A stretch of DNA of 64,000 bases from assembly GCA_965214095.1 (NCBI GenBank), contig OZ243938.1:288001-352000 (forward strand), given 5' to 3'. A program made the translations under genes and the position numbers. The DNA comes from Candidatus Poribacteria bacterium. Its GTDB lineage: Bacteria > Poribacteria > WGA-4E > WGA-3G. The notes beneath the pieces are model-generated. The model was not told where the DNA came from and did not search any database. It saw only the letters and a program-made list of their open reading frames with translations. Below are positions 23,796 to 33,024 of this stretch, one piece after another (position 1 is the first letter of the stretch; each line of letters starts with the position of its first letter).

Positions 23796-24884
23796 TTAAT
23801 TCGTTGAATTTGAGATTTTTTCTTGAACTCTGTTGATCTCGTCTTTGGAAGTCAATACACTTATTTCCACTTCATAATGACGACGTCCACCTGGTTCTAT
23901 ATGATGGAGTGAACCACGTTCACGTTCAGATGCTCTACCTTCAACTCTACAGTTTGATGGTTCTAATCCCATCACATAAGCACCTTGTCCACACATTTTC
24001 CACTGCACAAAGTGAGGAAATTGTGTTTTGTGGTAACGGACAGCTATCCCTATTCCTTGATCCTCGTTAAACGCACGGTTTACAAGAGCAACACGAATAT
24101 GATTATCAACATCCGGTTCCATTTCATGATAGTAAACCTGTTCTTGAAAGTCTACAGTCGGTGGTTCCCCGAAGTTATAATTTGTAAGGTTTTTTTTGGC
24201 GTGTTCATCTCGTGGTGTTACCTGCGAGGTCGGGGCAATAAGTTCGCATCTATCTGCAAGAATTGGAAAACCGGCATTAATATGAAAGAGATACATTAGA
24301 GGACATTCTTTGTAACCAAGATTTTCAACAATGTCCTCAATGTGAATCTTTTTTGAACCTAATTCTGTCCATATTCGACGCGTGCGACACAAATGTTCTC
24401 CTAAGGCAGTTGTTTCTGTTACTTTCCCTTGTGCCCACAATATATAACGATTGCCTTCCCATCGTGTATCTACCCAAACATTTTTGGCTGGAATATGTGA
24501 TACTCTTCCGTGCAATCCGAGTTCATCTTCTCCATCTTTGTTAGGGGCACCTGCTTGTGTCATCCCACATGTTGTTAATAAACCGCCATAAAATCCGCGT
24601 AACCATCCCACTCCCTGGGATTCATAATGTGTTGCTGCTACATCTCCTGTTCCTGAACGCCAACATAATGGAATTCCATTAAAATCTGCAAAAGATATGT
24701 CCATACCTCTATTCGGTAGAACAGTGAAGTTCAATCCAGAACCGGTTCTAAAACCGATAGCGTCTGTGCCTTTTTCATTCCCATCATTTAGTTGATAAAC
24801 CTTTGCCTCTGCCACTTGTGAAATGTCTCCTAAGTGGTGAAGCAGCTGCATTCTATCATAATCTTCTCCAAAAAGATGTATCAA
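23796..24884 (-). CDS. Aldose 1-epimerase-like protein (DUF4432)
   Basis: GLNFTVLPNRGMDI, GGLLTTCG, LHGR, HINAGFP, FVQWK, MGLEPSN. Confidence 0.88.
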   Translation of the reverse strand: MIHLFGEDYDRMQLLHHLGDISQVAEAKVYQLNDGNEKGTDAIGFRTGSGLNFTVLPNRGMDISFADFNGIPLCWRSGTGDVAATHYESQGVGWLRGFYGGLLTTCGMTQAGAPNKDGEDELGLHGRVSHIPAKNVWVDTRWEGNRYILWAQGKVTETTALGEHLCRTRRIWTELGSKKIHIEDIVENLGYKECPLMYLFHINAGFPILADRCELIAPTSQVTPRDEHAKKNLTNYNFGEPPTVDFQEQVYYHEMEPDVDNHIRVALVNRAFNEDQGIGIAVRYHKTQFPHFVQWKMCGQGAYVMGLEPSNCRVEGRASERERGSLHHIEPGGRRHYEVEISVLTSKDEINRVQEKISNSTN

Positions 24885-24948
24885 GTTCTCAGTCTCCTTT
24901 ACTATGCTTGTTTGCTATTTTTTACTTCTATTGTTTTCAAGTCATGGC

Positions 24949-24979
24949 ATTATAACAGAAATACAAGCGAAATACAAGC
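24949..24979 (-). promoter_or_regulatory. sigma70 promoter overlapped by an 11-bp tandem direct repeat
   Basis: Minus strand TTGTAT-N17-TATAAT with TG extension. GAAATACAAGC occurs twice (24958-24979). Confidence 0.55.
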
Positions 24980-25015
24980 AAGGATATTTTGTGGTTTCAA
25001 TTCCTATAGATATGT

Positions 25016-25204
25016 GAGGAGTGTGCATAAAGAAAATCAATCTCAAATATGCTCTTAAAAGTAGTAGGCACGCTCCGCGTGCCGTCCACAAGATCAAATC
25101 GTCTCAATAGATTATGCTGCCACAAAGGGAACAATTACATATAAAGAAATACTTGATGAGAGACGCTGCCAATGTTGGCACATAATATATTTATGCACCC
25201 CCTC
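25016..25204. mobile_element. MITE (~190 bp), TIR GAGGAGTGTGCATAAA, 8-bp target duplication, with REP-like hairpin
   Basis: AGATATGT|GAGGAGTGTGCATAAA ... TTTATGCACCCCCTC|AGATATGT. Internal GTAG-GCACGC-TCC-GCGTGCC. Near-identical copy at 55698-55887. Confidence 0.85.
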
Positions 25205-25250
25205 AGATATGTAACTCACTGATTAAAATAGAGATAATTTATGATAATGC

Positions 25251-26417
25251 TTATATTTCTGTCCTTAAAATCTCTGCTGCATTTTGTATCACTTGAAGTT
25301 TCTGAGTCGCGATGTCCGTAGTATTTACTGGGCGATCTGCAAATGTGCCAAATCCACAATCTGGATTCAGATAAACCTGTTCTGGTTTCCGATGTTTTAA
25401 GAGTGCTCTTACTTTGTTCAACACAAAATCTACAGATTCCACCTCTATGGTACGCGGATCAACGACTCCCAGTCCAATCTCTTTGTCTTCAGGAAGTTCA
25501 CTCAGAACATCTATACTACCTGCTCGTTCTGTAGCATATTCTAACACAAACTGATTAATGTTCATCTTGCTAAAATATGGAATTAGTAGATCATAAGAAC
25601 CACGGAGTAAGACATCTTCCTGTTGACTCCAGTTTCCTCTACAAACGTGTAGGGCAGTTTTCATTTGTCCATCTATACCTTCAACGACACGATTGATTAG
25701 TTCTACAGCAAAGTTCAGTTCTTCTTCTGGACTGCTTTTCTCTGATAAGGCAGCACACATGAACGAATGTGTTTCATGTGGACCAGTAAATGCAACTTCG
25801 GTAAGGACTGGTTCATCAAATTGCACAAATTCACAACCTGCATTCTGTAAATCTTGTAATTCTTGTTGAAGTACATCAACAACATCGTTACCAAGGGACT
25901 CTTTGTCAGGATAGAATTCGTAGGAGAGTTTCTTCACCCACATTGATCTGGTTAATAGGTAGGGACCTGGGAGGGTGACCTTGATCGGTTTATTGGTATG
26001 TTCCTTAAGGAAAAGGAAATCGCTTAGGACAAGTGGTGATGTCCGTTTTAGTTTTCCATCAACCACTGGGTTTTTTAAGGCAAAGGCAGGAACATCTAAT
26101 GCATTCAGCAATTGTTCAAAAGCAGCTTTGTCTTCAACATAGTCAAGCATTTCAGCAAGTGTCATCAATCGAATGCCGTCAATGCATTCAGTGATGAAAG
26201 AATAGAAGTTATCGCGGCGTTGTTCTCCATCGCTGACGATATCTACACCGTTGTCTTCTTGCAGTTTTAGGCTTTCAATCACTGCATTGTCTGCAATTTC
26301 AGTGAATTCGTTGTCTGTGATGTTCCCTTTATTTCTGTTCCGTATCGCCCGTGATACCGTCCTTGAACGAGGCATGCTGCCAACGACGGTTACCGGAAAC
26401 TGTGGTAAATTGTCCAT
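25251..26417 (-). CDS. Cobalamin-independent methionine synthase II (core MetE-like, single barrel) family protein
   Basis: TVVGSMPR, SDGEQRR, LPGP, QFDEP; Zn ligands LHVCRGN, LEYA, NPDCGF. Alternative start at 26441. Confidence 0.9.
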   Translation of the reverse strand: MDNLPQFPVTVVGSMPRSRTVSRAIRNRNKGNITDNEFTEIADNAVIESLKLQEDNGVDIVSDGEQRRDNFYSFITECIDGIRLMTLAEMLDYVEDKAAFEQLLNALDVPAFALKNPVVDGKLKRTSPLVLSDFLFLKEHTNKPIKVTLPGPYLLTRSMWVKKLSYEFYPDKESLGNDVVDVLQQELQDLQNAGCEFVQFDEPVLTEVAFTGPHETHSFMCAALSEKSSPEEELNFAVELINRVVEGIDGQMKTALHVCRGNWSQQEDVLLRGSYDLLIPYFSKMNINQFVLEYATERAGSIDVLSELPEDKEIGLGVVDPRTIEVESVDFVLNKVRALLKHRKPEQVYLNPDCGFGTFADRPVNTTDIATQKLQVIQNAAEILRTEI

Positions 26418-26491
26418 TGTTCGTATCTCCTTCACTTTCATTTAATGTGTTATGTTTGCAAACGCCAAAGCTTCTGCAATTGCTTATCTGG

Positions 26492-26704
26492 TTATTCTAC
26501 TAACTCTCTTTCAAATATAACGATCACTTGATCTGACCGACCACTAAATGTCGGAAGGATGATTTCACAAAGTCTCCATCCTTCTTTTCCTTCAGTATTA
26601 AGTGTACTCTCCAAGTCTGGTACATCTCGGTCCGGAGTTCCGAGCAATCCTTTTGCGTTAATCGAAACATCAAGCTTTACCGTTTTATACTCGTATTTCT
26701 TCAT
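26492..26704 (-). CDS. DUF4177 family protein
   Basis: MKKYEYKTV...LNTEGKEGWRL...IFERE pattern. Confidence 0.8.
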   Translation of the reverse strand: MKKYEYKTVKLDVSINAKGLLGTPDRDVPDLESTLNTEGKEGWRLCEIILPTFSGRSDQVIVIFERELVE

Positions 26705-26726
26705 TACTATGCCTCACTATGCCTCG

Positions 26727-27206
26727 TTAAGACACTGTTACATAAGGACGCGTGTCAATGTAATAGACCAGATGTCCTTCGTTTTCTCTGAAACCAATTG
26801 AGCGAAAAAAGGACTCTTCACAATTTTCAACGATGTAGCCCGTGATGAAGGTTGCGCCCATTTTTTCAAGTTCATGACATAAACGTTCACCTAACAGAAG
26901 TCCTAATCTACTATTATCTGATTCAATCAACGATCCGTTGTTGTATTTCAGATTATCTCCTTGATAGTGGACATCAACTGAAAATTCCATGATGTGTGCG
27001 GAAAGACCGTCAAAAGTAGCGCGTGCAAGTCCGACAAGTTGATTTTCTATGTATGCAGCTACGATTAGGTGTGGGTGTTCCAGAATCCGTGCTGCGACTT
27101 CTTTGCCGAACCCGACCTCGCAAATATTGTTTCGTTCATAGAAGTTGAATAACGCATCAGCAGTGATGATAGGGTTGACTTGGATGTTTATGGGTTGTGG
27201 TGTCAT
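26727..27206 (-). CDS. GNAT-like acetyltransferase fold protein
   Basis: LVGLARATFDGLSAHIMEFSVDVHYQG ... FFRSIGF. Confidence 0.65.
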   Translation of the reverse strand: MTPQPINIQVNPIITADALFNFYERNNICEVGFGKEVAARILEHPHLIVAAYIENQLVGLARATFDGLSAHIMEFSVDVHYQGDNLKYNNGSLIESDNSRLGLLLGERLCHELEKMGATFITGYIVENCEESFFRSIGFRENEGHLVYYIDTRPYVTVS

Positions 27207-27256
27207 GGTTTACTTCGCTCACTGATGGTATGAGGTCTTTGTATCACAATTCTTGG

Positions 27257-28237
27257 TTAGACATCATCTTCCTGTTCGCTGGAATTGAGTGAAAGCAATA
27301 CACTCTCAATTTCTGGTTGGAATACCTCTATTAGTTTTAAAAGGTTCGTGATATGCCATTCTCTAATTTCCTTTAATTCATCTTCAGTGGCTTCAATTGA
27401 TTCATCACGAGAAACGATTATGAATGTCTCTTGCTTGTCAGCATTACGTTGCCATTCAAGGTTGCTTCCAAACCTCCTAATAATTTCTTCCTCACGATCC
27501 TTTAGTACATCAAAAAGTGGGATTCGCTTCTCACATTGTCCTTGATAGATTCTTAAATCTACCCTTGCTTTGTCACCTTGGGCAAATGAAACTCTGTATG
27601 CAATGCCCGAAGTTCCTGAGGCAACAGTACGTCGGTTTTCTCCTGTATTACTTCTAAAATTCTTGGTAAAATTATACTTATCTCTTAATTCATCAATAAG
27701 TTCTTGAAAGAAGATCCTATACTTTTCTTGCTTAGGTGATACATCTGTTAGACGTTTCTGTTTCTGATACTTTTGCCATTCATTCGGAAAAACAACTAAC
27801 TTAAAAACAGGGGTAAGTTTTGACTTGTCAATTTGTAGAAGTTCCACCACGACAGCAAAGAACTGAGTCTCAGTATCCGTTCTCTGATTTAACCATTCTA
27901 AAGCTTGGCGATGTTCATCCCTAATTTTTTCTGAAACCCATACCACTACTGACGCATCATTGCCACCTGCGTATGTAAGCAGTTTTCCCAGATGTTCATG
28001 GTTGGATCGCTTAAACTGGTTTTCAATCACAACAGTTCTTGGAGTCCCTTCAACTTGAGCTAACAGATCCAGAAAGAAATCCCCAACTGGTGCTTCTCTG
28101 TCTACGACCTCAAGATCCATTCCAAGTGCATCACCTAATTTATCAATATGTTCTGCAAGCCACGGTGTAAAATCATTTTCTTCGTGTTTAAATACTTTGT
28201 GTAACGGAATTGTCTTTAATTCTCCAAAGTCATACAT
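27257..28237 (-). CDS. DUF4268 protein with an N-terminal NucS-like PD-(D/E)xK nuclease domain
   Basis: EENDFTPWL, REAPVGDFFLDLL, VVIENQ, HEHLGKLLTYA; C-terminal FGSNLEWQ. Confidence 0.75.
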   Translation of the reverse strand: MYDFGELKTIPLHKVFKHEENDFTPWLAEHIDKLGDALGMDLEVVDREAPVGDFFLDLLAQVEGTPRTVVIENQFKRSNHEHLGKLLTYAGGNDASVVVWVSEKIRDEHRQALEWLNQRTDTETQFFAVVVELLQIDKSKLTPVFKLVVFPNEWQKYQKQKRLTDVSPKQEKYRIFFQELIDELRDKYNFTKNFRSNTGENRRTVASGTSGIAYRVSFAQGDKARVDLRIYQGQCEKRIPLFDVLKDREEEIIRRFGSNLEWQRNADKQETFIIVSRDESIEATEDELKEIREWHITNLLKLIEVFQPEIESVLLSLNSSEQEDDV

Positions 28238-28454
28238 TTTTCAGGACTCCTTCCATTTTTTTCACACGACCAGCCTTAATATCAGTACGCACTTTTTCAG
28301 CAAGTTGAGCGAGTTGGTCTTGCGATTCTGCAAAAGACTTTTCCCACCGCCGTTCATCTTCAAGCTCTTCAAAAATGATGGTTGCAATGGCATCTTGCTG
28401 TTCGGGAGGCAATTTATATACCTCAGTAAGCACTTTTTCAAGTAGCTGTGTCAT
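28230..28454 (-). CDS. Small antitoxin-like protein
   Basis: MTQLLEK...KLPPEQQDAIA...LEDERRWEKSFAESQDQL...AGR, a pattern I recognise from antitoxins normally upstream of RelE/ParE-like toxins. Strong AAGGAGG Shine-Dalgarno. Confidence 0.65.
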   Translation of the reverse strand: MTQLLEKVLTEVYKLPPEQQDAIATIIFEELEDERRWEKSFAESQDQLAQLAEKVRTDIKAGRVKKMEGVLKNV

Positions 28455-28480
28455 AATTGTTCCTCCTTAGTTTTACTAAC

Positions 28481-29221
28481 TTATATCACTCGCAAGTCCA
28501 CATTTATATCAACATCACGCGTCAAAGTATTCGTCACAGGAGAAGCAGTGATGGTTTCCTGCCAAAGTTTTTCTAACACTTCATCATCAGCATCCGATGC
28601 TACGTATATCGTTCCGCTGACCTCTTTAAACCCGCTATGTCCGTCCTGCTCTGTTCCAAGAAAAACAAAGATGTTATCTATCTGACCACTTAGTGATATT
28701 TCTAGCTCATCTATCTGAATTTTCTGTTGTGAAGCACGAATTTGAAAACCCATCGCTAAACAAGCACCGAGTGCACCAAGAACATATTCTACTGCACTGG
28801 GTGCCTCATCACGTACATCAAAACTTGCAGGCTGTCCAACCGACCATGAGTGATTTCTACAGAATACCTTTGCCTGAAGACCACCATCCCAATGGATACG
28901 CGTCTTCCACTGATAATCTCGTGCTTGTTCGTAGGCAATATCTGCATCCTGTTCGGCTTCACCGCGTTGTACGAAATATTTGTTATGCTCAGGATCAGAT
29001 CGCCAACCGAGATATGGGTTTTCTGTCATCCGACACCAGGCTGGCAGATCCTCTTTGACACTGATTTCTGTACTACGTATTTCCAAGACTTCTCCATCAG
29101 GAACTTTTTCCATAGATTTACGAATGAGCAAGAGTAAACCAGAACCACAGTCAAGGTTTCCACCTTCACATATATGTGATGTTTGTAAAGAATCAGGGGC
29201 ATTTAAATCTTCTTCTCGCAT
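28481..29221 (-). CDS. TusA-like sulfur carrier fused to an OsmC-family domain
   Basis: N-terminal GGNLDCGSG...DLPAWCR (TusA/SirA fold); C-terminal PSAVEYVLGALGAC...SPVTNTL (OsmC with the second Cys replaced by Ser). Confidence 0.85.
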   Translation of the reverse strand: MREEDLNAPDSLQTSHICEGGNLDCGSGLLLLIRKSMEKVPDGEVLEIRSTEISVKEDLPAWCRMTENPYLGWRSDPEHNKYFVQRGEAEQDADIAYEQARDYQWKTRIHWDGGLQAKVFCRNHSWSVGQPASFDVRDEAPSAVEYVLGALGACLAMGFQIRASQQKIQIDELEISLSGQIDNIFVFLGTEQDGHSGFKEVSGTIYVASDADDEVLEKLWQETITASPVTNTLTRDVDINVDLRVI

Positions 29222-29329
29222 ATATTTCCTTTGTGAAAGATAGATTCTGTCTTAACTTTATCTATAGAAAGTATTTGCAAATCTGTTTTATCGTTTGTCT
29301 GTTTTGTATTATATGTTTTATTTTGAAGG

Positions 29330-29544
29330 TGGGCAAGGGTGTTGTGGGTTTATTGAGAAGAATATTAGTGGTCTTAATAATGAAACCCTCCCTATGTATT
29401 CGTTTACTCTAAGTGAGAAATATCAAATGATCTTTTGGTAAACAACCATATTTACATTGGGAGGGAGACATGTTTGTCAGAATTGGGATTCAACCGAACC
29501 CAATAGGCTATTACTGCAACAGACTGCAGGAACACCTTAACCCA
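29330..29544. ncRNA. Candidate structured non-coding RNA (multi-hairpin, closed by a 14-bp terminal stem)
   Basis: TGGGCAAGGGTGTT / AACACCTTAACCCA ends; internal stems TTATTGAGA/TCTTAATAA, CCCTCCC..ATGTA/TACAT..GGGAGGG, GTTTAC/GTAAAC, GACA/TGTC, ATTGGG..TTC/GAA..CCCAAT, CTGCA/TGCAG. Confidence 0.45.
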
Positions 29545-29547
29545 ATG

Positions 29548-29907
29548 TCAATAGGTAATGCAAGATGCACCAGTAGTTAAGAACTCAACAGCCTTTGCAC
29601 CACCAACTATCAATGCACTTTCAACAAGGTTATTTTCATCCAGACTTCGTTTCTTGAAGCATGGAGAACATACCCAAATTGTTCCACCCACCTCAACAAA
29701 ATCAGACATTAATTGTTTTAGTGGTGCAAAACTTTCTTCATGAATATCATCAGCGTAACCACTCTGTGATAGATGTACACCTTCAGTGCTAAGAAATATG
29801 ACTGTTTCAACACCGGATGCAACCGAAGCATTCGCAACAACAAAACCGACAGTGGCTTTGTCGGTATTATCTTTTGCATGCGTAATGCTTATCATTAACT
29901 TCGCCAT
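29548..29907 (-). CDS. DsrE/DsrF-like (peroxiredoxin-type sulfur transfer) protein
   Basis: IFLSTEGV, GGTIWVCSPCFKKR (CxxC), IVGGA. Confidence 0.88.
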   Translation of the reverse strand: MAKLMISITHAKDNTDKATVGFVVANASVASGVETVIFLSTEGVHLSQSGYADDIHEESFAPLKQLMSDFVEVGGTIWVCSPCFKKRSLDENNLVESALIVGGAKAVEFLTTGASCITY

Positions 29908-29912
29908 TATGT

Positions 29913-30170
29913 TTATACTCCTTTTTTAATATAAAAATAGGCATTGTCTTCTCCGCAGCAATCTGCAAGAAGTTCATTGCCTATCATGTTACACCATGCC
30001 GCGATGTCTACAGGGGCACCTGGATCCAAAGCGCGGACTTGTGCTATCTGCCCTTGCTCAAGAGTTCTCATGGATTTTAATAGTGCTATAATAAGGTCAC
30101 CACATCCGAGTTCTCCTAAATCAAAAACAGCATCTGGTTTTATGTCTGGTAAAACTACTTTTTCTCCCAT
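29913..30170 (-). CDS. Sulfurtransferase TusA/SirA family protein
   Basis: FDLGELGCGD, GQIAQVRALDPGAPVDIAAWC, YFYIKK. Start uncertain (30170 or 30206). Confidence 0.8.
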   Translation of the reverse strand: MGEKVVLPDIKPDAVFDLGELGCGDLIIALLKSMRTLEQGQIAQVRALDPGAPVDIAAWCNMIGNELLADCCGEDNAYFYIKKGV

Positions 30171-30236
30171 ATAAAATAAAATACCATATAATTTTTCAGA
30201 TGTCAATCTAATTAAACCGACAATTGAGAGTTATAC

Positions 30237-31106
30237 TTAACGTTCAAGCCATCCCGGTAATTTTATGTTTTCCGACATTTTCCATGCAGTTAGATAGAGA
30301 GATGCTGTCCAACGCACACCCTCTCGTGAGCGGTCATTCGTAAACTCAATTAATTCTGTGGAAGGTTTTTTGAGTGCCTCATATTGTTCAACAAGTTCAT
30401 ATACATTATCTACCAAGTTAAAGCCTTCTTTTAACTGCTTGACAATTGCTGGAAATAAGTCACCAACCATCTCTACTTTTTGATCCTTGGCAAGTTCAGA
30501 TGGATCAAGTTTTAATACCTCAATTGATGAATCTACTTTCTCATGGATTCCACTATGCAGTTTTGAACCGTCCTTTTGAACAATACCATCAAAATGTACA
30601 GTCAAGTGTAGAGGTTGGCACATGTCTTGTGCATAGTGACCGAGAAATCCCGCATATACATAACATTTGTATTGTATTATCGGATTATCAGGCCATTTGC
30701 GATATTCTGCAAAAGCGATAGCCAGTCGTTCTGTCCATTCCGCTACTGCATAGGGTAGGTAACCAACTTTGCCTGGATCCTGATTCAACTCTGCACACAA
30801 TTTGATGAATGCATCACGATTAACTGGTACAGGATTATCTTTGATGAGTTCCAGATCAAAGTAATGTTCACCGTGTTCTGCTATCCGAGCATGTGCCATA
30901 TCACGATTCTTAGACACATCAGGATCATAAGCACAATGTGTGATCATACTTTCACCTGATGCTGACCTGAAAAATTCAGGTAATTCGTCAGGTAACGCTT
31001 TAATAGAGGCTTGTGTGAGGATGTCATGTCCACCACCCCACCATGCAAAAGTGGGAGAAGAAAGCACGAACACCGATAGAACCAATACTTGTAATATACG
31101 TTTCAT
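30237..31106 (-). CDS. Secreted S1/P1 nuclease / zinc-dependent phospholipase C-like protein
   Basis: Signal peptide then mature WWGGGH; PD, HYFD, GHYAQDMCQPLH and IHE zinc ligands. Confidence 0.8.
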   Translation of the reverse strand: MKRILQVLVLSVFVLSSPTFAWWGGGHDILTQASIKALPDELPEFFRSASGESMITHCAYDPDVSKNRDMAHARIAEHGEHYFDLELIKDNPVPVNRDAFIKLCAELNQDPGKVGYLPYAVAEWTERLAIAFAEYRKWPDNPIIQYKCYVYAGFLGHYAQDMCQPLHLTVHFDGIVQKDGSKLHSGIHEKVDSSIEVLKLDPSELAKDQKVEMVGDLFPAIVKQLKEGFNLVDNVYELVEQYEALKKPSTELIEFTNDRSREGVRWTASLYLTAWKMSENIKLPGWLER

Positions 31107-31123
31107 AATACTCCTTTATACTA

Positions 31124-32083
31124 TTAGTCAGCTGCGAGATATTCTGAAGATTCATCTTCGTGCCATTGGAATTGAAGGTCTGTAGTTTCATGCGGTTTAA
31201 ACGGTATAGCAACGGTATCAACATCAGCACCGATGATGTCTATATTCTTTAGATCCGCAGTGCCGTAACCTAATTCATTGGCATAGTTGAACAATCCAAT
31301 CTCCATAGGTTCAAATCCCATTGCTTTTGATGTGACAGCATCTGCAGCGAACACATCACCACTTGCTATAGCAATTCCGAGAGGAACTGAATTGGTGCCA
31401 CCTGGACCGTTCCCTTGTAATCCAACAGTTCCATCAACAATAGCAATGTCTGGCTTAAGATAACGTGATAACCGAAGTAGGTTGATATTTAGGCTTTGTG
31501 CTTCACGCGGAAGCTCACGATCTGCATGACTATGATAACCGTGCATTTTAATGCGGTCCTCTTTGTGCAATGTTCCCATAATCATGTTTTTCATTGCAAG
31601 GGTAACAACACCAGCATCATGCGTCTTTGCAATAGCAACAGATATGGTGCAGGGACAATCAAGAACGATCTTCGGCATCCGGACAGTATCTGACTTCCGA
31701 TCTGCAAGAAACGCTGTGGTTTCCACCCATTCAGTTTCTTGATGTAAATCAACCAGTCTGATAGGAACATCATACTCCGCTTGTAGCGCATCATATCCAA
31801 AGATTTGAAATGCTTCACCAGAAAACGATTCATTAGCACCCTCAGCGATGATAATCTCGTTTGGTCGTTGTGGAGTGCTCAATAGAAAGTCAATAGCACC
31901 ACGTATCACATCAACATGTGAGGATGCAAGTTGATTTGTGCTGGAGAGGAAATTCGGCTTTAACAACACTTGTTCACGCACTTTCGGTGTGATGTCATCA
32001 CGGATATTGTTTAGTGCTTCATAAACATTAGAACGTCGTCTTCCAGTTTTGGCAAGACCTACTTTTGTAACATTCGTAGCCAT
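31124..32083 (-). CDS. DUF362 family protein
   Basis: VLLKPN, IAEG, KTHD..VTLAMKN, IVDG..GLQGNGP, D.FAAD. Confidence 0.85.
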   Translation of the reverse strand: MATNVTKVGLAKTGRRRSNVYEALNNIRDDITPKVREQVLLKPNFLSSTNQLASSHVDVIRGAIDFLLSTPQRPNEIIIAEGANESFSGEAFQIFGYDALQAEYDVPIRLVDLHQETEWVETTAFLADRKSDTVRMPKIVLDCPCTISVAIAKTHDAGVVTLAMKNMIMGTLHKEDRIKMHGYHSHADRELPREAQSLNINLLRLSRYLKPDIAIVDGTVGLQGNGPGGTNSVPLGIAIASGDVFAADAVTSKAMGFEPMEIGLFNYANELGYGTADLKNIDIIGADVDTVAIPFKPHETTDLQFQWHEDESSEYLAAD

Positions 32084-32142
32084 ATAGTTTCTCCCTTTAT
32101 TTACAAAGGACACATCATTGATTAGAATTAAACGATTGACAG

Positions 32143-33024
32143 TTATCCATCTAAAATTGGTCGTAATAGTCCCCGATTTTTTTCTAAGAGTATAGTTGCA
32201 TCATCTTTGTTGATTCCTTTAACCAACATTACAATTGCTATCTTTGCATTACCTTCAGCTTTATTCAAAGTCTTTCGTGCAATTGCGGTTTCTACACCTG
32301 TAACAGTTTGAACAATTCTGATACACCGCTCAACTAATTTTGAATTTGTGGCATTCACATCCACCATAAGGTTATTATATACTTTTCCAATTTTCACCAT
32401 TGAAACGGTTGTCAGCATATTTAGAACTAATTTTGTTGCAGTTCCGGCTTTCAAACGAGTTGACCCTGTGATTATTTCAGGACCAACAATTGGGGTGATG
32501 AAGTGATCAACATACTCCTCTAATTCTTCTGCAGGTGGAACACACGACAGAAATATAGTTTTGACTCCAATTGCATGTGCTTGGTTTAATGCACCTAAAA
32601 CATAAGGAGTTCTTCCACTTGTTGCTATGCCAACGAGAATGTCTTTCTCTGTCAGTTTAAAGTCAAGAATTGCATTTGCACCGCGATCTAGTTTATCCTC
32701 TTCACCTTCTACTGCATTACGCAAAGCCGTATCCCCTCCTGCAATGATTCCTTGTACCATTTCTGGGTGTGTACTAAAGGTAGGTGGACATTCAGAAGCG
32801 TCCAAAACACCAAGTCTCCCACTTGTCCCCGCACCAATGTAAAAGAGGCTACCTCCATTTTGAAATGTCTTGACTATCATCTCAATTGCATGTGAGATGG
32901 ATTCTGATTCATCTGCAACTGCATCTATTGCCTTTTGATCTTCCTCGTGAAAAATCTGAACGATTTCTGAGATTGACCTTAAATCAATGTCAGTTGAATT
33001 TGGATTTCGTTGTTCTGTTATCAC
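32143..33024 (-). CDS. murQ: N-acetylmuramic acid 6-phosphate etherase
   Basis: TEQRNP, GAGTSGRLGVLDASECPPTF, SGRTPYV, GPEIITGSTRLKAGTATKLVLNM. Confidence 0.97.
   Translation of the reverse strand: MITEQRNPNSTDIDLRSISEIVQIFHEEDQKAIDAVADESESISHAIEMIVKTFQNGGSLFYIGAGTSGRLGVLDASECPPTFSTHPEMVQGIIAGGDTALRNAVEGEEDKLDRGANAILDFKLTEKDILVGIATSGRTPYVLGALNQAHAIGVKTIFLSCVPPAEELEEYVDHFITPIVGPEIITGSTRLKAGTATKLVLNMLTTVSMVKIGKVYNNLMVDVNATNSKLVERCIRIVQTVTGVETAIARKTLNKAEGNAKIAIVMLVKGINKDDATILLEKNRGLLRPILDG

Follow-up and report, generated by a model that had tools for sequence, protein, structure and literature searches.

The terminal step of methionine synthesis is known to be carried out by MetH, by MetE and by four "core" families, of which MesD acts with a partner, MesX, and uses a methyl source that is still unknown. 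Here we describe a cassette of four genes that is conserved across many bacterial phyla and that may be an unrecognized way of making methionine. The copy analyzed here lies on the minus strand of a 64,000-nucleotide (nt) stretch of DNA from a Candidatus Poribacteria bacterium (positions 1-64,000; hereafter, the window) and encodes a small TusA-like carrier, a DsrE-like carrier, a TusA-OsmC fusion protein and a MetE-like zinc enzyme. A reading made from the sequence alone had called this module undescribed, and a literature search, which left subscription journals and supplements outside its scope, found no paper describing it.

MesD, which is described together with MesX by Price, Deutschbauer and Arkin (2021, PMC7857596; Shewanella structure 3RPD), is, like the cassette enzyme, a single MetE-type barrel that has no folate-binding N-terminal domain. 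The two systems are also alike in keeping the zinc- and homocysteine-binding residues, in usually coexisting with MetH and in depending on, or at least being strictly linked to, an adjoining partner gene whose product has an unknown chemistry. However, the cassette enzyme and MesD share only 22% identity in a structural alignment with 3RPD, and Price et al. separate families at less than 30% identity. The partners of the cassette enzyme are TusA, DsrE and TusA-OsmC (or an SBP-like protein, an OsmC protein and usually an ACAD-like protein), whereas that of MesD is MesX. MesX (DUF1852, PF08908) was absent from every cassette locus; PF08908 was also found in none of five cassette genomes, but control genomes gave no match either, so the genome-wide part of this result is weak. 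In addition, the cassette occurs in anaerobes (such as Brocadia) as well as aerobes, whereas MesD occurs only in aerobes, and the cassette enzyme has an extra invariant loop cysteine that MesD does not have.

MesB and MesC likewise resemble the cassette enzyme in being single barrels with conserved functional residues. In Price et al. (2021), MesB and MesC are placed solely in organisms with a CoFeSP-type pathway. Among the cassette carriers, Brocadia also has CoFeSP (CdhD family, 357.7 and 121.6 bits); the CdhD-family search gave no match in two other cassette genomes, G000 (that of the window) and G045, and matched only inside MetH in two Bacillota genomes, G042 and G043. MesA occurs only in methanogens, whereas all cassette carriers found are bacteria. 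The family was set apart from MesA, MesB and MesC by NCBIfam scores, all of which were below cut-off, and by phyletic criteria, and from MesD also via 3RPD. Because there are cassette genomes without a CoFeSP-type match, and because MesX was not found (with the controls giving no match, as stated), we conclude that the cassette is not MesB, MesC or MesD.

Full-length MetE (EC 2.1.1.14) shares with the cassette enzyme the catalytic-barrel fold (1T7L, TM-score 0.76), the zinc ligands and the homocysteine contacts. It differs in having two barrels and about 750 residues, whereas the cassette enzyme has 388 residues, no N-terminal barrel, approximately 21% identity to MetE, family-specific inserts that include a loop bearing cysteine C221, and dedicated carrier partners. 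On the side of the carriers, YedF (Lin et al. 2015, PMC5322559) and the TusA/DsrE relays of sulfur oxidation and tRNA thiolation pair the same two carrier folds and conserve the cysteines. Unlike YedF, the cassette encodes TusA and DsrE as separate genes, which are followed by a second TusA domain; its motifs are C-G in TusA and CSPC in DsrE, as opposed to CPxP and CGxC in YedF-type relays, and its acceptor is a MetE-fold zinc enzyme. No paper was found that pairs TusA/DsrE carriers with a MetE-fold enzyme.

The four genes of the window

The sequence-only reading had proposed that tusA-like, dsrE-like, TusA-OsmC and MetE-like genes lie co-oriented in the window, and this was confirmed by the list of open reading frames (ORFs) and by Pfam. 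The small TusA-like carrier (29913..30170, minus strand; GCG[DE]L and PAWC cysteines) probably starts at the ATG at 30170, which gives 85 residues; at full extent its ORF (29913..30206, minus strand) encodes 97 residues from a TTG and includes the motif LGCGD, and we place the start at the ATG because homologues measure 68-135 residues. The DsrE-like carrier (29548..29907, minus strand) has 119 residues and a VCSPC sequence with the CSPC motif. The TusA-OsmC fusion (28481..29221, minus strand) has 246 residues, with LDCGSG in its TusA part and GAC in its OsmC part. Finally, the single-barrel MetE-like zinc enzyme (25251..26417, minus strand) has 388 residues; its ORF at full extent (25251..26441, minus strand) encodes 396, and the start is probably M9, at 26417, because close homologues are 388 residues long.

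Pfam matches were well above cut-off for DsrE (PF02635; 48.5 bits, cut-off 22.7), for OsmC in the fusion (PF02566; 56.3 bits, cut-off 27.5) and for Meth_synt_2 in the enzyme (120.7 bits, cut-off 21). The two TusA domains of the window scored 28.1 bits (small carrier) and 26.8 bits against TusA (PF01206), slightly below the cut-off of 28.6, which the Neobacillus orthologues exceed (40.7 and 33.7 bits). The enzyme had been proposed to be a single barrel with an intact zinc site. Its sole match to Meth_synt_1 (PF08267) is a stretch of 47 residues (169-215), from which we conclude that it is indeed a single barrel, and the zinc residues proved to be invariant in 34 sequences. An NCBIfam search with the four window proteins, the DsrE-like protein included, reached no equivalog cut-off; the top match of the enzyme was PRK04326 (218.8 bits, cut-off 406), and TIGR01371 (MetE) gave 105 bits against a cut-off of 930.

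One part of the proposal needed correction. Four ORFs that had been overlooked separate the TusA-OsmC gene from the MetE-like gene, and the cassette in the window is therefore co-oriented but not contiguous. Although the set is interrupted here, its conservation elsewhere places the grouping beyond chance, and what the window contains is an interrupted Poribacteria version of a cassette that occurs widely in bacteria.

Conservation of the cassette across phyla

Homologous loci were sampled at one genome per species and sorted by tblastn of the window proteins against them, which yielded 79 loci, 31 of them Poribacteria-like and 48 from other bacteria. In 32 of the 48 non-Poribacteria loci, the genes for TusA, DsrE, TusA-OsmC and the MetE-like enzyme adjoin in that order on one strand, with median gaps of 29, 15 and 18 nt (31 loci in which all ORFs were called). 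Five more loci have the identical arrangement as far as the contig end, seven carry a second partner set instead, and four, with less than 210 nt of upstream DNA, cannot be judged. Every sampled non-Poribacteria locus with enough DNA thus has a partner set. With both sets counted, the 48 loci span Planctomycetota (including Brocadia), Chloroflexota, Nitrospinota, Armatimonadota, Acidobacteriota, Methylomirabilis, Entotheonellaceae, Gallionella/Nitrosomonadales (Betaproteobacteria), Alphaproteobacteria, Actinomycetota (Thermoleophilaceae) and Bacillota (Bacillus/Neobacillus). When 697 flanking ORFs taken from 38 non-Poribacteria loci were clustered, no further neighbor family proved to be widely shared across phyla, the exceptions being the partners of the second set and a LysR gene in five Bacillota loci.

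Within the Neobacillus family (Bacillota), the enzyme was found at 74% identity or more in 34 of 151 genomes, and TusA-OsmC was found in exactly the same 34, always adjoining the enzyme; a relative with 47-49% identity is present in three more genomes and as a second copy in one of the 34. As a control, we inspected the nearest core-MetE paralogues outside the family (33-40% identity, genomes of the same order). These have no carrier neighbors and adjoin genes for a peptidase, an MFS transporter, a hydantoinase and DUF6785 instead.

Three types of cassette can be distinguished. Type I is the gene set of the window. Type II, seen in the seven sampled loci with the second partner set and in three further Bacillota loci, combines the enzyme with an SBP-like protein, a separate OsmC protein belonging to the same subfamily and usually an ACAD-like flavoprotein, which is present in five of the seven sampled loci and in eight of ten when the Bacillota additions are included. 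In type III, a TusA domain of the LDCGSG type is fused in frame to the enzyme and OsmC is absent. Such fusions came to light in a search of representative proteins, where 6 of 14 longer matches had TusA and Meth_synt_2 in one chain, and in a scan of metagenome contigs with one fused protein, where 74 of 80 loci encode an in-frame TusA::MetE-like protein. DsrE lies directly upstream in 65 of these 74 fused loci, and the remaining nine are cut by the contig start.

In-frame fusion is a classic sign that two parts, here the carrier domain and the enzyme, act jointly. In type III, from which it is absent, OsmC is dispensable, and in type II, where they are replaced, so are TusA and DsrE. The only constants across the three types are the enzyme and its loop cysteine, and the small TusA and DsrE-like genes always lie directly upstream of the LDCGSG-type TusA domain. 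Co-occurrence of the enzyme with the carriers, which had been set as a test of the original proposal, was thus found in adjacency (32 loci plus 5 truncated ones, of 48), in the shared distribution over 34 of the 151 genomes and in the 74 fusions; the functional linkage is close to the strongest that comparative genomics can provide.

The partners in type II recall another gene set. The ACAD-like flavoprotein has as its top NCBIfam match the Rv1679 family (NF049984; 248-442 bits) and the SBP-like protein the Rv1680 family (NF049985; 212-255 bits) of the Mycobacterium tuberculosis set Rv1679-Rv1680-Rv1681, and the TusA domains of the cassette show weak similarity to the N-terminal part of the Rv1681 radical SAM family (NF049973), although none of these matches reaches its curated cut-off. 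In mycobacteria, the last member of the set is a radical SAM protein and not a MetE-like enzyme. No paper on the Rv1679-Rv1680-Rv1681 set was found.

Other genes near individual cassettes were also recorded. A classical two-cysteine OsmC gene, distinct from the OsmC domain of the cassette, directly follows the cassette in Neobacillus (L091:11187-11639 and related loci). In a single case, the Acidobacteria type II locus L079, an EgtB-like gene (DinB_2 plus FGE-sulfatase; L079:5026-6366) follows the enzyme and a fused OpuAC-permease gene of a betaine-type transporter (L079:462-2405) precedes the set. A gene pair for a corrinoid protein and a URO-D methyltransferase (L066:13140-14870), 2 kb downstream of a Nitrosomonadales cassette, was considered and rejected as part of the module, since a porin gene separates it from the cassette and no other locus showed it.

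Active site, loop cysteine and fold of the enzyme

According to Price et al. (2021, PMC7857596), the zinc ligands of E. coli MetE are H641, C643, E665 and C726, and its homocysteine contacts are S433, E484 and D599. The equivalents in the window enzyme are H257, C259, E293 and C354 for zinc and S14, E65 and D201 for homocysteine, and all seven positions are invariant in an alignment of 34 type I sequences. Among 152 near-full-length members of the three types, the motifs G[ST]xPR, DEP, DCG[FL] and F[ML]C[AG] are present in all 152 and DGE in 148; strict H-x-C and Glu patterns match 143 and 131, and the misses may be due to the strictness of these patterns. The motif F[ML]C[AG] contains the family-specific, invariant C221, which lies in a loop of the enzyme.

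An AlphaFold (AF2) model of the enzyme (pLDDT 87.7, pTM 0.90) has low confidence in residues 211-229, the loop that holds C221. In this model, a conserved yet poorly modeled loop is as would be expected for a mobile catalytic element. Foldseek returned as top matches Thermotoga maritima MetE 1T7L (TM-score 0.76, 21% identity), MesD 3RPD (22%) and Listeria 1YPX (21%); with the structural matches at only 21-22% identity, the fold is that of MetE and the family is distinct. A predicted complex of the MetE-like enzyme, zinc and TusA-OsmC scored 0.08 (mark, 0.32) and is uninformative on binding either way. One TusA::MetE-like fusion of 503 residues (P0158) has lost the loop cysteine, the H-x-C motif and the C-terminal cysteine, and its sequence suggests that it is probably an inactive paralogue.

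The carriers and the OsmC domain

The TusA domains conserve the cysteine at the start of helix 1 within a C-G motif rather than the classical CPxP. Orthologues of the small TusA in 32 non-Poribacteria loci share the GCG[DE]L and PAWC motifs, and in the TusA domain of the fusion, C18, C25 (LDCGSG) and C63 (PAWC) are invariant in type I; C18 is lost in the type III proteins inspected. Both cysteines of the DsrE motif (C80 and C83, CSPC) are present in 33 of 33 aligned orthologues, and DsrE, with 60-81% identity across phyla, is conserved at least as well as the enzyme.

An AF2 model of TusA-OsmC (pLDDT 87.9) gave the OsmC structures 1LQL, 2ONF, 2OPL and 1NYE as top Foldseek matches. The sequence-only reading had described a single-cysteine OsmC domain. 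The window protein does have one OsmC cysteine (in GAC), but this residue is not essential to the family: of 35 type I proteins, 5 have Asp in its place, all 7 type II OsmC proteins examined have Asp or Ser, and the whole domain is absent from the fused form. At the position of the second catalytic cysteine, the domain has an invariant Ser-Pro (S227-P228). The peroxidatic and resolving cysteines are assigned here by reference to E. coli OsmC. Because the second cysteine is missing throughout and the first is not conserved, the OsmC of the cassette is not a peroxidase.

These results bear on the hypothesis that the enzyme works like any other core methionine synthase, with a methyl donor that has nothing to do with the carriers, and that the carriers and OsmC only keep its zinc-site and loop cysteines reduced or load its zinc. 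MetE is known to be inactivated by thiol oxidation, OsmC-family proteins are thiol peroxidases, and the CSPC motif of DsrE is of the CxxC type; in the window, moreover, a promoter-like site in the spacer between the DsrE and TusA-OsmC genes means that the carriers and the enzyme may not all be co-transcribed. However, an OsmC with no second catalytic cysteine and a dispensable first one does not fit a protective role, the strong conservation of DsrE and the tethering of a carrier domain to the enzyme speak for a partner that takes part stoichiometrically in catalysis and not for a repair factor, and the cassette is present in the strictly anaerobic Brocadia. We therefore regard a role in protection or repair as very unlikely.

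A candidate partner-dependent methionine synthase

The reading that we favor, and to which we give an even chance of being correct, is that the cassette encodes a partner-dependent methionine synthase that is fed from a carrier cysteine and represents a fifth core family. By analogy with MesD and MesX, it would operate with neither a folate-binding domain nor B12, and its physiological product is most likely methionine. A cysteine-bound cargo would pass from the small TusA to DsrE, then to the TusA domain and on to the loop cysteine or the zinc site of the enzyme, where it would meet zinc-activated homocysteine. The sequence-only reading had suggested, as possible chemistry, that a protein-bound thiol or persulfide is alkylated or that S-methyl groups are passed on to homocysteine. 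As a speculation, a persulfide on the loop cysteine or on a carrier, which would be both a strong nucleophile and a good leaving group, could shuttle the methyl group to homocysteine and so play the role of cob(I)alamin in MetH.

The distribution of the cassette is consistent with this proposal. In four Brocadia genomes, including a complete one, the S-methyl_trans domain is missing and the cassette supplies the single Meth_synt_2 gene, which is the sole MetE/MetH-type gene in 4 of 4. The MetE and MetH models, with which the complete genome alone was searched, gave no match there at cut-off. A MetH-type gene is present in 21 of 29 cassette genomes and full-length MetE in 3 of 29. With MetH common and full MetE rare, this distribution resembles that of MesD/MesX, for which Price et al. 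(2021, PMC7857596) give MetH in 75% of the MesD genomes. The window's own genome has a MetH-like ORF of 1254 residues, an S-methyl_trans-MTHFR fusion, and no full MetE. Furthermore, in two alphaproteobacterial loci a gene of the cystathionine gamma-synthase family follows the enzyme on the same strand.

Several observations weigh against a methionine synthase. Methionine genes in Bacillota usually carry SAM, T-box or cobalamin riboswitches; Rfam at the gathering threshold found none of these in 33 loci, 10 of which were from Bacillota (7 type I and 3 type II), and a search of window positions 24000..33000 at E values up to 1 gave nothing relevant. The LysR regulator gene that is divergent from the cassette in five Neobacillus/Bacillus loci belongs to the selenium-associated family NF040786 (302.8 bits, cut-off 250). 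Most carriers have MetH, so the cassette is not needed there as the only synthase. With respect to the chemistry, we know of no role for persulfide carriers in methyl transfer, and a thiolate normally attacks the sulfur, not the carbon, of a methyl disulfide. The type II partners, to judge from their family matches, resemble sulfur-acquisition proteins, and sulfur delivery would fit them better than methyl delivery. Finally, Brocadia was found to have none of the known homocysteine-forming enzymes (true Cys_Met_Meta_PP, HcyBio, MetX and MetA), and the argument from a sole synthase therefore rests on a presumed methionine auxotroph; Feng 2024 reads anammox bacteria as such. For Brocadia, Lawson 2017 reports a methionine synthase but no identified enzymes for the remaining steps of the pathway. 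Because a synthase is needed to recycle homocysteine from S-adenosylhomocysteine, the Brocadia case favors a synthase function but does not prove that methionine is made de novo.

An alternative is sulfur insertion, in which the carriers would deliver a persulfide to the zinc site and a C-S or S-S bond would be formed on a four-carbon amino acid. Homocysteine, or methionine directly, might in this way be made from activated homoserine with no need for pyridoxal 5'-phosphate (PLP), or a homocysteine persulfide might be formed or removed. TusA and DsrE families are carriers of persulfide or thiosulfonate, which is what such a mechanism would require, and the nearest NCBIfam families of the type II partners include SfnB, 3-sulfinopropanoyl-CoA desulfinase and SsuA-like proteins. 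Also in its favor are the incomplete Brocadia pathway described by Lawson 2017 and the gene content of the genomes: all four Brocadia genomes had no true Cys_Met_Meta_PP enzyme (the best match was partial, at 41 bits), HcyBio, MetX or MetA, and the genome of the window had no MetX, MetA or HcyBio. However, 19 of 24 other cassette genomes do have true Cys_Met_Meta_PP enzymes, which indicates that the cassette does not generally replace PLP sulfhydrylases. In addition, the cysteine-rich zinc site is of the kind that activates a bound thiol, the pocket holds the sulfur of homocysteine on zinc in a geometry that suits S-alkylation and not displacement at C-gamma, and an enzyme that made homocysteine would leave Brocadia without any methionine synthase. 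We consider sulfur insertion rather doubtful on these grounds. A bolder form of the synthase proposal, also unlikely in our estimation, would make the cassette a self-contained methionine route without B12, a folate-binding domain or a PLP sulfhydrylase, in which a persulfide or selenopersulfide on a carrier or on the loop cysteine would be the nucleophile and would either move a methyl group, as a cob(I)alamin surrogate, or insert sulfur.

Possible links to selenium

In a further alternative, the relay would carry a selenopersulfide, and the enzyme would make or process a seleno-amino acid or would methylate selenium so that it can be stored or detoxified. The LysR gene next to the five Neobacillus/Bacillus cassettes speaks for this. 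Lin et al. (2015, PMC5322559) link both YedF, a TusA-DsrE fusion, and LysR_Se to selenium, and the top NCBIfam match of the OsmC domain, although below cut-off, is named "OsmC-related (seleno)protein". The selD gene is present in the window's genome, in two Brocadia genomes and in one Acidobacteriota genome, and two truncated representatives of the enzyme (P0139 and P0191) end exactly one residue before the loop cysteine, as an in-frame UGA for selenocysteine would cause. However, 162 loci (flanks of 4-10 kb) contained neither a selD-like gene nor an in-frame stop at the position of the loop cysteine. The LysR adjacency is limited to one clade. In the Neobacillus family, selD is found in 134 of 151 genomes irrespective of the cassette and is therefore uninformative there as a discriminator. 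Moreover, selD was not found in two cassette carriers, G146 and G188, nor in the Nitrosomonadales carrier G044 (a metagenome-assembled genome of 1.7 Mb). Altogether, we judge it unlikely that the cassette serves to handle selenium.

Two observations concern selenium in the wider group. The selD gene of the window's genome, which lies outside the window (G000:C1:1272212-1273138), has one in-frame TGA, and the organism therefore probably decodes selenocysteine. Two distant DsrE-like ORFs (G027:C303:647-979 and G030:C74:15425-15751; 23-25% identity), from another family of the same order, also have one in-frame TGA each and, on this evidence, may encode DsrE-like selenoproteins.

Interruption, spacer and flanks of the cassette in Poribacteria

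The insertion that interrupts the cassette in the window (26492..28454, minus strand) comprises four ORFs, all on the minus strand and outside the conserved module. A 74-residue ORF of no family (28230..28454) overlaps by 8 nt the start of an ORF for a DUF4268 protein of 326 residues (27257..28237), which matches the PADLOC candidate defense family PDC-S11 at 322.7 bits; this pair sits inside the cassette and is followed by a 159-residue ORF of no family (26727..27206) and by a 70-residue DUF4177 protein identified by Pfam (26492..26704). In other Poribacteria, the interval between TusA-OsmC and the enzyme ranges from 0.08 to 9.2 kb, as opposed to a median of 18 nt outside the group. All 24 relatives searched within the genus have the enzyme (82-96% identity), TusA-OsmC and DsrE. 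In 18 of them, the TusA-OsmC gene shares strand and contig with the enzyme gene and precedes it at a distance of 0.6-13 kb, and in the other six the enzyme and carriers are far apart or on separate contigs; in the closest relative (96% identity), they are 189 kb apart on opposite strands. These variable distances among relatives indicate that the interval is an insertion hot spot in Poribacteria. TusA-OsmC is missing from sixteen genomes that belong to the same order but to other families, and the MetE-like proteins of these genomes have at most 40% identity.

Viewed from Poribacteria, the enzyme and carriers could be neighbors by chance or by shared ancestry within the genus and have no functional link, given the four unrelated ORFs between them in the window and their separation in 6 of the 24 genus genomes. 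Adjacency, co-occurrence and fusion in other phyla refute this explanation for practical purposes, and we assign it a negligible probability.

The DsrE and TusA-OsmC genes of the window are separated by a 326-nt spacer (29222..29547, minus strand) that contains two hairpins and a promoter-like site (29336..29308). The hairpins, located just past the DsrE stop codon (29373..29547, minus strand), are conserved in 13 Poribacteria sequences, with compensatory changes in 7 of 17 predicted pairs, and had no match in Rfam. The spacer element is possibly regulatory or involved in processing and specific to Poribacteria; the hairpins might serve for processing or attenuation or form a small RNA. A possible long-range pairing, CTCCCTCC/GGGAGGG, was noted near them. 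A terminator-like hairpin (25067..25083, minus strand), recognized by consensus match only, lies approximately 170 nt beyond the stop codon of the MetE-like gene. Genes for a DUF4432 protein, a 289-residue protein of no family and a DUF362 protein flank the cassette (23796..24884 and 30237..32113, minus strand) and accompany it in many Poribacteria, but not in other phyla.

Implications for methionine synthesis

If the cassette is a partner-dependent methionine synthase, it would add a fifth core family, with a partner set never linked to such chemistry, to the known enzymes of the terminal step, and if its carriers move a methyl group or sulfur via a persulfide, this would be a new kind of group-transfer chemistry. 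The cassette is spread over at least ten phyla and includes among its carriers anammox bacteria, nitrite oxidizers, iron oxidizers, sponge symbionts and soil Bacillota; its presence in cultivable Neobacillus and Bacillus strains makes the question testable by ordinary genetics and biochemistry. Anammox genomes have repeatedly been reported to have no complete methionine pathway, which Lawson 2017 and Feng 2024 read as cross-feeding. The only gene of methionine-synthase type in these bacteria is that of the cassette enzyme, which comes with a putative sulfur relay of its own. Should the self-contained route prove true, anammox bacteria would be methionine prototrophs through the cassette.

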